From positions 37,262,001 through 37,326,000 of the forward strand of contig NC_059426.1 of the NCBI RefSeq assembly GCF_021028975.2: DNA of 64,000 nt, in the 5' to 3' direction. The stretch comes from Sphaerodactylus townsendi. Its lineage: Eukaryota. Position 1 is the first letter of the stretch. Each line of letters starts with the position of its first letter. The position numbers and the translations under genes were made by a program. This document shows, piece after piece, positions 4,193 to 63,324 of the stretch. The notes beneath the pieces are model-generated. The model made no database searches, was not told the DNA's origin, and saw only the letters and a list, made by a program, of their open reading frames with translations.

Positions 4193-4353
4193 AAGTAAGA
4201 CAAAATTCCAGCGATGAAAAATAAGAGCAAATTGTTTGTGTTTTATGTACAACTGTGAAAATGAAAGGTGAACATTGAGGAACATCGTTTCGAATGTACT
4301 GTTTTCAGGATGAGCTGTAATTCAGAGGCGGAACACTTGCTTTCCATGAACAA

Positions 4354-9975: not shown

Positions 9976-10173
9976 GATAGGGTCTGACTTGCATGTTCAG
10001 GCCTGAGCTTTGCTCTGAGTTTTTTAAAAATCCATTTTAATAATCTGGGTTTGTATTATCTTGCCATGGTTTGAGAGTTACTGGAGAAACTGGTGTGGAT
10101 AATTTCCTTTCTCAGTGTGCATTGCTAGGTATCTGGAAGGGGTATGACAGCAGAATTGCTCCTTGAGCTAGCT

Positions 10174-10321
10174 CAGGGGTAGGGAACCTGCGGCTCTCCA
10201 GATGTTCAGGAACTACAATTCCCATCAGCCCCTACCAGCATGGCCAATTGGCCATGCTGACAGAGGCTGATGGAAATTTTAGTTCCTGAACATCTGGAGA
10301 GCCGCAGGTTCCCTACCCCTG
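10174..10321. mobile_element. Palindromic hAT MITE (148 bp)
   Basis: Near-perfect fold-back CAGGGGTAGGGAACCTGCGGCTCTCCAGATG...CATCTGGAGAGCCGCAGGTTCCCTACCCCTG; TSD AGCTAGCT on both sides. Confidence 0.92.
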
Positions 10322-10452
10322 AGCTAGCTCAAAAAGGAGACCAGGTAATGTTGGTGCTTTTTCTGGGGCAAGGTGGCCCGAGACAGAGAAGTGGACAGAC
10401 TCAGGGTTAGCAGTGAGCCTATAATGTGGATAGAGTTAGACAAGCCATAGGC

Positions 10453-11665: not shown

Positions 11666-11780
11666 TATTGTCAAAGGCTTTCACAGCTGGAAAACTGGCT
11701 GTTGTGGGTTTTCTGGGCTGTGTGGGCCACGGTCTGGTAGTTTTAGCTCCTAACGTTTCACCCAGATCTATGGCTGGTAT
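11666..11780 (-). mobile_element. Penelope-like element terminal (pLTR) fragment
   Basis: TATTGTCAAAGGCTTTCAC...GGCTGTTGTGGGTTTTC...CCTAACGTTTCACCC; minus strand retains the GAAACGTTAGG half of a minimal hammerhead motif. Confidence 0.7.
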
Positions 11781-14649: not shown

Positions 14650-14871
14650 TGGCTGTTGTGGGTTTTCCAGGCTGTGTGGCTGTAGTCTAGTGACTTTTGC
14701 TTGTAATGTTTTGCCCGCGTCTTTACAGGTATGTCATAGTAAGATGTGTTTCACTCTGTGCATCTTACCATGACATGCCTCTGAAGATGTCTGCCATAGA
14801 TACGGGTGAACAGTAACATCTACCAGGTTACGGCCACACAGCCCAGAAAACCCACAATGGCCAGTGAAAGC
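14650..14871. mobile_element. Palindromic Penelope-derived element (two inverted pLTR arms)
   Basis: Left arm TGGCTGTTGTGGGTTTTCCAGGCTGTGTGGC mirrors right arm GCCACACAGCCCAGAAAACCCACAATGGCCA; CCTCTGAAGATG at 14778-14789; same centre as 61913-62190. Confidence 0.75.
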
Positions 14872-34850: not shown

Positions 34851-35241
34851 CAGTGGTGGGATCCAAAAATTTTAGTAACAGGTTCCCATGGTGGTGGGAT
34901 TCAAACTGTGGCGTAGCGCCAATGGGGCTGGGCGGGGCATGACGGGGGCATGGCCGGGCGTTCCGGGGGCGGGGCATTCCTGGGCAGGGCTGTGGCAAGG
35001 ACACAGCTGCTGTGCCGGTCCTTGGGCGGAAAACGAATGCACGCAGGCGCAGGCTGCCACGCACGCCAGTGCACCTCCTGCTAGACTGCTTCAAGTTCTG
35101 CGTGCTACTGCTGAGAGGAGGGCGTAACTAAGGCAAAAATCACATGGCAAAATCACCAATTAGTAACCCCCTCTCGGCACACACAAATAATTAGTAACCT
35201 ACTCTCGGGAACCTGTGAGAACCTGCTGGATCCCACCTCTG
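34851..35241. mobile_element. Non-autonomous hAT transposon (391 bp), inverted relative to 936-1326
   Basis: TIRs; TSD GTTGTAGC at 34843-34850 and 35242-35249. Confidence 0.92.
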
Positions 35242-35315
35242 GTTGTAGCTGGTCTGTCTGAATTTACTGTTCACAAATGGCAATTTTTTTTTCAACTCTT
35301 TAAATCCCCATTTTT

Positions 35316-60250: not shown

Positions 60251-60340
60251 ACTCCTATCCTGCCTAGCAATGATGCTAGAGACCAGAGTTGTTTTTATTG
60301 ACTAGTTGTGTGTGTATCCTTTGGAACTATTCATATTTTG

Positions 60341-61478
60341 TCGAAGGCTTTCACTGCCGGATTCAACTGGTTCTGGTGGTTTTTCCGGGCTGTGTGGCCA
60401 TGGTCTGGTGGGTTTTGTTCCTCTGCCTCTTCTTGCTTTTCCCACTACAGATCTCACACCGTCCTCTGCAGTGAACATCGTCAGCTGCCACTCTTGGCTT
60501 CCCTCTCTGGTGCCACTGGCAAACTCACTAGGCCTCTGAGGGCTAACTGCGGGCAACTTACCAGTTATGATGGATATCTAGTCCCTTCTTTACCTGAGGT
60601 GCTGTGCCTCTTTCTATCAATTGCCGGGGAGCGTGGGTCAGAGACTGTTCCTGCAATCTTCCTGCTTCTGGTAGCCATTGATAGACTCCCACAAGCCACA
60701 CTTGCAGTGAATCCCCACTGCCACCAAGCTCAACATTGTTTTGTCTCAGTTCCCCTCCCCTCAGAACTGCGACATCCTTGTCGCAGTTATGAACTACACT
60801 TTTCTGCCGGAACAAGGTCGATACCGCTTCGAGGCTTCGAAGTGGGGAAGCATCGAAACGACACCTCATCCGTTCAACCAATCACGAGCCGCTTTTGTGG
60901 CATACGCAGAACGGGAGGAGAGTGCGTGTGGGTGGGCAGAAAGCGCATGTAACTGTAAACTGTAAAAACTGTAAAAAAAAAAAGAACGCTCCCGTTTCCC
61001 GCCGTAACACAAGCTCCAATCACGATCGAGGAGCGAAACAGGCACCAAGATGATCCTGCCCACTTAGCTCGGTTCCAGGGGGCCAACTCAGTTGCTGTGG
61101 GGACAGCCTGGAATCGTCCTCCACTGAAGGGAACCGAGTCGACCTTAGCTCCCTTCTGTAGTGGGGAAAGCCCCTATAGCTTGCACAGTCCACTGGATGA
61201 GCCGCTGCAGAAAATTAGCCTCCCCTGCTTCTCAACCCTGTGGAGTAAGTGCAACTCCCCCAATCCTTGGGAAAGGTAAGGGAAATGAGAGAGGCATCAG
61301 TTGTGTCCAATGCCTCTGCCAATAAGGACAGAAAAAGAGCCCAGGTACTATCCGGGCCCGCCTTCGGGTTTTAGCTGTGCCCAGCTGCAGCCTACTGGGA
61401 AGTTTGCAGAATGGCAGGAAGTTGCCCGCAGTTAGCCCTCAGAGGCCTAGTGAGTTTGCCTACCAGAACCAGAACCAG
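60341..61478. mobile_element. Composite insertion with Penelope-like ends, bounded by a TSD
   Basis: Direct repeat TATTCATATTTTG at 60328-60340 and 61479-61491; PLE pLTR end at ~60338-60422; perfect 42-bp inverted repeat at 60518-60559/61419-61460. Confidence 0.75.
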
Positions 61479-61912: not shown

Positions 61913-62190
61913 CTGGCTGTTGTGGGGTTTCTGAGCTGTGTGGCCGTGGTCTGATAGTTTTGTTTCCTAATGTTTGTCCACATCTATGGCTGGCATCTTC
62001 AGAGGCATGTAAGATGTGTTTCTCTATGTGGCACAGTGAGAGAAACACATTTTACTGTGACATGCATTTGAACATGCCAGCCGTAGATGTGAGTGAAATG
62101 TTAGCAGCAAGAATTACCAGACCACAGCCACACAGCTCAGAAAACCCACAACAGCCAGTTGATTCCTGCCATGAAAACCTTTGCCAATAC
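61913..62190. mobile_element. Palindromic Penelope-derived element (second copy)
   Basis: Inverted pLTR arms; centre GTAAGATGTGTTTCTCT...AGAGAAACACATTTTAC; CATCTTCAGAGG gives CCTCTGAAGATG on the minus strand; PLE terminus GAAAACCTTTGCCAATAC. Confidence 0.8.
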
Positions 62191-62399
62191 AGTAAGATGT
62201 ATTTCTTTTTCAATAGATTTAGAAAGGTGTAACTCTGATTTTGAATACATTGGTTAGGAATACATTGTTAAATTTGTTTAGATTGTGCTCTGTTAAGAAC
62301 ATTTCTAGATTGAGACGACTTAGCTTACTTAAATTTAAACTGTGTTCTTCTGTATGTATCTATTTTGACTCTAAATTAAAGTTAATCTGACCCTGTCCT

Positions 62400-62578
62400 G
62401 CCCTGGATAGCCCAGGCTAGCCTAATCTCATCAGATCTTGGAAGCTAACTAGGGTCAAATATTCCAAGGAACGCTGGGGTCATGATGCAGAGACAGGCAA
62501 TGACAAACCACTTCTACACATCTCTTGCTTTGAAAACTCCACCAGGGGTCGCCATAAGTCAGATGTGACTTGGCAAAA
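62400..62578 (+). mobile_element. 5S-derived SINE with RTE-type tail
   Basis: CCTAATCTCATCAGATCTTGGAAGCTAACTAGGG head; GGGGTCGCCATAAGTCAGATGTGACTTG tail. Confidence 0.7.
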
Positions 62579-63324
62579 TAATATATATATATGGCAGAAT
62601 CCTCCCTATTTTCCCCCTTGGGAATATGGACACCCTTTTTGTGAGATAGAAAATGACACAGGATGCCCAAAGGCATAGCAAAAATCCTCTCAGTGTCATC
62701 CCAATCTGGAATAGATTCAGAATCACTGAAGCTGAACTACATCATTATAGGTTGCATTTGGAATACAAAATAATATAGATCTGGTAATCCCATGCTCCAG
62801 TGGCCTAAGATGTTTTGAGTGTGTACAAAGCAACCAAACAGACATTTTATCCCATCTAAATTGCATATTTAGTATGTTTAATTTGACAAAGAATCATGGG
62901 ACAAATTTTAAGTGGAACAGGCAAACAATATAAAATAATCTTGGACAAATATGCATAATGACTGCCATCGTTCTCCTCAGCAAATGCAGAGATAGTGTTT
63001 GACATCTTTCTTTGTATTTTGAGATTTTTTTTGTAGCACATTCTTTGAAACAATGTTAGTAAAATTATAATAAAGCTTCATACCCAAGTGAGTTCTTTGC
63101 ACATTTGAAATTCAAAGTGTTAGAACTGTGTGTCTTCTCCCATTTAATGCTGGATTTTCTCACTGACAGGATGCATGAGTCACATTTCCCACTCACCTGT
63201 AGTGTTAGAATTGACATAGAAGAGCATATTAAAAAGTGGGTGATCTAAAAATACCAAATGTTTAAAATTCAGTAGAATGACAAAAACAATAAAAGTCTAT
63301 GGCCACCAAGCATATTGTCTATTG

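Follow-up and report, generated by a model that had tools for sequence, protein, structure and literature searches.

The closest described counterpart of the locus analysed here is the canonical unit of EN+ Penelope-like elements (PLEs), which according to the available part of PMC8557442 consists of an inverted, 5'-truncated pLTR and a one-sided tail of 30-40 bp. Inverted copies with a one-sided tail are also described in the accessible portions of PMC3846280, PMC2377424 and PMC8969392, where both Pen2a_Av (PMC3846280) and the 34-bp repeat of D. virilis (PMC2377424) are the same kind of unit. PMC8557442 describes the origin of the inverted repeats and of the one-sided tail as an open question, and the cited papers, as far as their accessible text goes, propose antisense self-priming or endonuclease resolution, or leave the step undefined. 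The sole reconstituted PLE that we found in print is PAc, the Poseidon element of Anolis carolinensis. According to the available excerpts of PMC11167929, PAc, a predicted dimer, cleaves and extends both strands of its target; its reverse transcription starts map to +111-118 and the tail sits between two start sites, the bulk data place the start sites at the same positions on both strands, and the reaction in vitro needs the stretch from +119 to +172. The same excerpts are silent on inverted arms and use the word 'inverted' once, of a blocking base.

Within the window, by which we mean the whole stretch of 64,000 nucleotides that was analysed, positions 61913-62158 form one hairpin, trailed by 33 unpaired bases that run to 62191. 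The minimum free energy computed for the RNA of 61913-62191 is -158.1 kcal/mol (z -16), and 0 of 200 shuffled sequences equalled it. The left part (61913-62038, minus strand) is an inverted, tail-less arm that contains a PLE 5' UTR and the first 28 codons, from ORF coordinate +85 back to -48, where the inner limit would correspond to the 5' end of the RNA. The right part (62038-62191, plus strand) is a direct arm from -36 to +118, with its ATG at 62074 and the first 39 codons in decayed form. As read from the printed sequence, the junction base 62038 is compatible with both arms. Divergence from the family consensus is 6.7% at non-CpG positions for the left arm (104 sites) and 9.1% for the right arm (143 sites). 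The copy is asymmetric, as only the right arm bears the 33-nt PLE tail (62159-62191, plus strand, +86 to +118; tail as defined in the available parts of PMC11167929 and PMC8557442). A sequence-only reading of this DNA had proposed a ~245-bp hairpin with inverted arms of Penelope origin, and the folding and the content of the arms bear out both points; it had also regarded the element as ORF-less, which does not hold, since the arms derive from the start of a PLE ORF. Both outer junctions are spanned by contigs of two related organisms, and the copy is therefore older than their split. No target duplication flanks 61913-62191, and no empty allele was present at the locus in the four runs compared. 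Read depth points to a high-copy SINE-like repeat at 62397-62580, ~200 bp downstream. We regard the hairpin as a decayed stub made of two front-end copies of a Penelope/Poseidon retroelement, probably placed head to head by twin priming in an individual insertion.

Immediately past the tail lies an element-derived piece of 15 nt (62192-62206, minus strand, about -21 to -35), recognised by sequence match and also spanned in two relatives. It agrees with the antisense centre at 14 of 15 bases, a match equalled by 1 of 63,021 other 15-mers in the window. The template jump at the terminus that had been suggested earlier stands to the extent that the templated piece is real, but it is a one-off: such a piece lies beside the tail in 1 of the 81 family copies examined, one nested insertion not counted. 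It is likely a short templated insertion, made for example if the first cDNA served as template for extension of target DNA prior to priming at +118; alternatively, the window copy possibly landed in a scrap of an older copy.

The window holds further copies. At 14650-14865 the same subfamily is represented by another fold-back, whose centre differs (+84 to -40 inverted, -26 to +86 direct), and by eye the direct arm of this copy is followed by a short deletion and an apparent tail remnant. Two solo tail arms lie on the minus strand, one of the same subfamily at 11666-11780 (+1 to +116), which has neither an inverted partner nor a CUGANGA box, and one of sister subfamily B at 60333-60422 (+30 to +119). 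The arms at 14650 and 11666 had earlier been merged with those of the hairpin into one consensus; the former copy is indeed a fold-back, but the latter is a solo arm without CUGANGA. Elsewhere in the window we noticed a palindrome at 10163-10332 with a MITE-type look (85-nt arms, 94% complementary, no loop), and a ~390-bp repeat in two copies (1056-1326 and 34851-35242) that is 93% alike to one inside another fold-back (L160). A short hairpin at 27315-27397 matches the mir-5408 model below gathering score on both strands, and with a similar mir-5408-like hairpin at 4254-4338 of locus L309 it likely represents a small repeat. In twenty evenly spaced 10-kb stretches from four contigs (199,902 bases) we counted 12 fold-backs, four of them of subfamily C, that of the window copy, as well as 7 solo arms, and a rough estimate for subfamily C is of the order of 10,000 copies.

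From its sequence, the source appears to be an EN+ PLE of the Penelope/Poseidon type. The frame opened by the ATG within the hammerhead motif spans 39 codons in the right arm and 28 in the left, and the N-terminal peptide can be aligned, gap-free, with the PAc RNA as printed in the available part of PMC11167929, where 23 of 39 residues are identical by eye. This gapless alignment with the ORF start of the anole Poseidon makes the ORF coordinates comparable, and the colinearity, judged by eye, is the basis of the Poseidon link. The homology also suggests a lizard host. As in the PAc excerpts (PMC11167929), the ATG lies at the start of hammerhead stem II, and the tail end at +118 falls inside the reported +111-118 start region; unlike PAc, the subfamily here is decayed, its arms lying about 10% from their own consensus at non-CpG sites. 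The fixed arm ends described below fit the PAc tail ends, with the +111-118 site as the only one that has a coordinate for comparison in those excerpts. Since a stub that ends at +118 is without the +119 to +172 stretch needed by PAc, it would not move again.

The pLTR overlaps the ORF start and carries a minimal hammerhead, as expected of an EN+ PLE. Upstream of it, subfamily C contains a TATA-like box and decayed remnants of PLE C-terminal coding sequence (tblastn, 20 of 30 loci) that match the thumb and C-terminal part of the ORF of sister family A; no intact family C ORF occurred among the loci examined. Family A itself gave RVT_1 at E 1.5e-12 and E 7.4e-8. Pfam GIY-YIG had no match in the ORFs scanned, and by eye the PLE C-terminal sequences show a motif with Cys/His residues that we take to be GIY-YIG-like. 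Used as a query for the ORF continuation, the printed PAc RNA hit 246 places in the genome, and a guessed continuation hit 0. The survey of full-length copies covered 14 of 20 loci. An insertion of 2,887 bp at locus L309 retains the whole ORF region, in four frames, together with a tail-less arm in inverted orientation and a pLTR with tail, all within a 13-bp duplication. At four loci (L304, L306, L315, L317) the ORF start extends past +124 and then joins a downstream pLTR, by either internal deletion or template jump; two of them, L315 and L317, also carry a duplication and an inverted arm.

The minimal hammerheads of PLEs were described by Cervera and de la Pena 2014 (PMC4209133, available in part), and the layout of a minimal type I hammerhead is present on each strand of 61913-62191, as the sequence-only reading had claimed. 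The consensus of subfamily C, with CpG restored from counts, reads CCT-CTGAAGA, stem II, GAAAC-GTT-AGG, and is a complete minimal hammerhead. In common with the motifs in the accessible text of PMC4209133, it has CUGANGA and GAAA boxes, a 6-bp stem II and palindromic positions 15.2-16.2 in place of a stable helix III; in contrast to them, the motifs at this locus are mutated and lie on opposite strands, so that a same-strand hammerhead dimer is impossible here. Each is broken. The plus-strand motif (62065-62105) is changed at C3 and G8, and in the excerpts of PMC11167929 the change G8C abolishes cleavage by the PAc ribozyme; the minus-strand motif (61966-62005) has an intact CUGANGA box and has lost G12 of GAAA. 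These changes agree with the earlier expectation that such copies are probably inactive. The core is broken or absent in all five window arms of this subfamily, and its letters are intact in 19 of 73 sampled arms. Rfam hammerhead models had no match in the window or in four better-preserved loci, a silence we take as uninformative for minimal motifs, and the hammerhead call consequently rests on reading of the letters and on colinearity with the PAc ribozyme. In RNA folding, stem II forms in the sense unit alone, whereas in a fold-back RNA, whichever strand is folded, the pair probability of the hammerhead stems is 0. At 8.5% against an expected 11.2%, the core letters change slightly less than their neighbours, perhaps because the source elements themselves varied. 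The ribozyme motifs of the stub are thus predicted to be inherited, mutated, locked in the hairpin and inactive, and there are two of them, one per strand, because the inversion duplicates them as a side effect.

In the available part of bioRxiv 10.64898/2026.07.22.740005, non-LTR retrozymes (see also PMC7229834) are likewise short, ORF-free, pLTR-related and hammerhead-bearing, but they are head-to-tail tandems with same-strand ribozymes that move as a family, whereas the arms here are head to head with variable junctions. Same-strand repeats of pLTR and ORF start, spaced 162-330 nt apart, occur at C4:158576350-158576738, C7:17910211-17910397 and C6:21329664-21330018, and these are possibly retrozyme-like tandems with same-strand hammerheads.

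Whether the asymmetry of the window copy is general can be read from the outer ends of other copies. The arm 22-mer has 1,421 exact occurrences in the genome, of which 100 were listed; our unbiased sample took 90 of these, all from one contig, and comprised 89 loci after one duplicate was dropped. An inverted partner was present at 60 of these anchor loci and 29 were solo arms, so twin products are not obligatory. Among the outer ends of 149 arms, 47 lay at +116..+118 and 41 at +83..+87. Where both ends of a pair could be classified, 41 of 42 pairs combined a tail with a tail-less end, none had two tails and one had none (binomial p 2e-11). A second set, of 69 tail-anchored loci, gave the same picture, the partner being tail-less at 47, tailed at 2, unclassified at 10 and missing (solo) at 10. 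Duplicate rows were dropped for L014, L021 and L025 (same places), L122 and L083, and for L082 in the junction count; L078 and L082 are one duplicated insertion, and both are counted in the tail-anchored and duplication tallies. With a 33-nt tail on one end, the 41 of 42 mixed pairs and the full-length L309, these units show the 30-40 bp one-end tail and the inverted 5'-truncated copy of the canonical unit. Folding of the tail region gave weak structures that differ across the three subfamilies.

Among 44 young pairs, 39 are surrounded as a whole by a single target duplication of at least 7 nt, where 1.5 would be expected; among 81 pairs of family C the figure is 35 (2.6 expected). The duplications measured are mostly 9-14 nt long. 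One end-product thus corresponds to one insertion, which makes it scarcely credible that the two arms stem from successive insertions, the second copy landing in or beside the first through an endonuclease that favours its own pLTR: PAc does cut its own ORF-pLTR junction in vitro (PMC11167929, available part) and nested cases exist, with copies of one subfamily inserted into or beside those of another at L093 and L115, but the single duplication, the strict pairing of tail with no tail, and the rare variants common to both arms argue against it.

The inner ends are far more variable than the outer ones, as the meeting point of the arms ranges from about +85 to a position several hundred bases upstream, a layout common to all three subfamilies. 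They do show a preferred limit, at -11..-13 in 14 of 55 family A arms and at -42..-48 in 24 of 149 family C arms, with a TATA-like box 31 nt (family A) and 28 nt (family C) upstream. Judging from this motif, the limit presumably marks the 5' end of the RNA. For Penelope of D. virilis, an internal TATA-less promoter is described in the accessible literature.

Our preferred reading, which we hold to be probable, is that each fold-back arises from two cDNAs, one per target nick, that start at two fixed sites and are joined by their 3' ends. In this scheme the PLE protein, a predicted dimer in print, would nick the two target strands about 10-13 nt apart; one nick would prime at +118 and the other at +85, probably on one RNA, and use of the two sites on opposite nicks would account for the pairing of tail with no tail. 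Most cDNAs would be short, because the start sites lie near the 5' end of the mRNA, and would reach the RNA start, 28-31 nt past the TATA-like box, or stop short of it. Joining of the cDNA 3' ends by microhomology or with inserted bases would then complete both second strands. The evidence for this mechanism consists of genomic end-products, and the bulk PAc data, with no strand difference in start site, speak against it. A similar course is known from LINE-1 twin priming, where both target nicks prime, a 5' inversion results and the junction carries microhomology. The difference is that LINE-1 primes two parts of its RNA, one at a variable internal site, whereas here the two priming sites would be fixed, with 33 nt between them, and both arms copy the same region.

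The strict pairing and the variants shared by the arms point to one RNA that was read twice. In family C, the variant at site -21 was in both arms of 11 copies, in neither of 33 and discordant in 5, and in family A the discordant copies were 0 of 21 at site 73 and 0 of 22 at site 78; L069 is the only copy flanked by a target duplication that is discordant at a recurring variant (+58). The same observations also fit an alternative in which one cDNA, or an antisense RNA, primes itself, an endonuclease resolves the resulting hairpin and so confines the tail to one side, and the centre is scrambled by deletions that follow. A self-primed antisense template has been proposed (PMC3846280), as has a tail that results from EN-mediated resolution (PMC8557442; both as far as available), and in some family A copies (L282, L293) the junction is a perfect palindrome built on a GATC overlap of 4 nt, as would be expected of this course. 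We nevertheless consider it unlikely, on four counts.

If a sense-primed cDNA had snapped back, the arm with the tail should be the deeper one. Two caveats apply here: in the old family C the limits of an arm can be placed only to within several bases, and trimming of a palindrome centre once it is inserted could obscure which arm had reached deeper and mimic part of the pattern. With these in mind, the tail arm was deeper in 39 of 81 pairs, the tail-less arm in 33 and the two were within 7 nt in 9, and in the unbiased set of 41 pairs the tail-less arm was deeper in 24, the tail arm in 14 and 3 were ties. The difference can be large: in the young L069, within a 12-bp duplication, the tail-less arm extends to -436 and the tail arm stops at +42, which puts the former ahead by up to about 480 nt. 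The junctions are a third point, for among 73 pairs with adjacent arms, 26 overlap by at least 2 nt, 8 are blunt, 15 have 1-4 extra bases and 24 have at least 5, the last class being hard to reconcile with self-priming. At L070, L274 and L286 the junctions hold extra templated repeats of the arm 5' end, and such repeats resemble polymerase theta joins. Lastly, the overlap between target and tail-less end is of the kind left by priming: in 22 of 39 duplications, between 1 and 5 nt of the tail-less arm are included. Overlap at the tail end is partly selected, since the tail-anchored search pattern ended in TTG. Overall, the counts favour two primed cDNAs over self-priming.

The sequence-only reading had instead seen a palindromic, non-autonomous PLE family with one ribozyme motif per strand; such a family, amplified from a single master or a small set of them, we now judge very improbable. 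Used as a genome query, the window copy returned 6,275 first-look candidates, and the top matches that were scored (40 of 40) match on both strands, with both arms and a similar length, although this set was selected by the query. A few junction types do recur, and non-autonomous, hammerhead-bearing PLE derivatives, the retrozymes, exist (bioRxiv 10.64898/2026.07.22.740005, available part). On the other side, the shared palindromic centre on which that proposal was built is not there, and a centre that varies from copy to copy is what that reading had itself named as grounds for refutation: the centres at 62k and 14k differ, 39 fold-backs show varied centres, about 51 junction types occur among 75 copies, with 6 of 75 in the largest clusters, and the exact 31-nt majority centre has 0 matches genome-wide. 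Nor did we find arm-fixed differences that would mark a master (2 sites at p<0.01, uncorrected over all positions tested), and the CpG states of the two arms are mutually independent. The layout is common to three subfamilies and to a full-length coding copy, the stretch from +119 to +172 required by PAc is missing, and the hammerhead stems cannot form in the hairpin RNA. A recurring microhomology junction (-45/-28) is seen in both orientations relative to the tail; a flip/flop of one centre, which we considered, was apparent only and reduces to variable junctions and CpG decay. Gene conversion from arm to arm was not seen, the arm divergence being 0.177 within vs 0.189 between copies. The fold-backs are thus very probably products of individual insertions rather than members of a master family.

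Set beside the canonical EN+ PLE unit, as given in the accessible literature, the copies described here share the head-to-head inverted copy, the one-end tail, a pLTR that includes the first codons, a target duplication of about 9-13 bp and palindrome-like junctions, and differ in that most consist of two short arms with no ORF body between them. The shape is thus already in print, and what we would add is that both target nicks prime separate cDNAs that are later joined; in the largely open-access literature searched, we found no twin-priming model for PLEs. The broader proposal, that asymmetric twin priming is built into PLEs, with a dimer on one RNA that primes at +118 on one strand and at +85 on the other, seems to us evenly balanced.

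The sequence itself is ordinary, being one of many thousands of decayed stubs, and its value is as a record of mechanism. For annotation, such stubs could be mistaken for MITEs, pre-miRNAs or new ribozyme families, and young copies indeed match miRNA models below threshold. Colinearity with PAc means that the genomic ends of this family predict, to the base, what the PAc assay should show, and the pairing, the arm depth, the single duplication and the inner limit behind the TATA-like box are all directly testable there. If twin priming is true, the inverted pLTR, the one-sided tail and second-strand synthesis of these elements would all come from one step.
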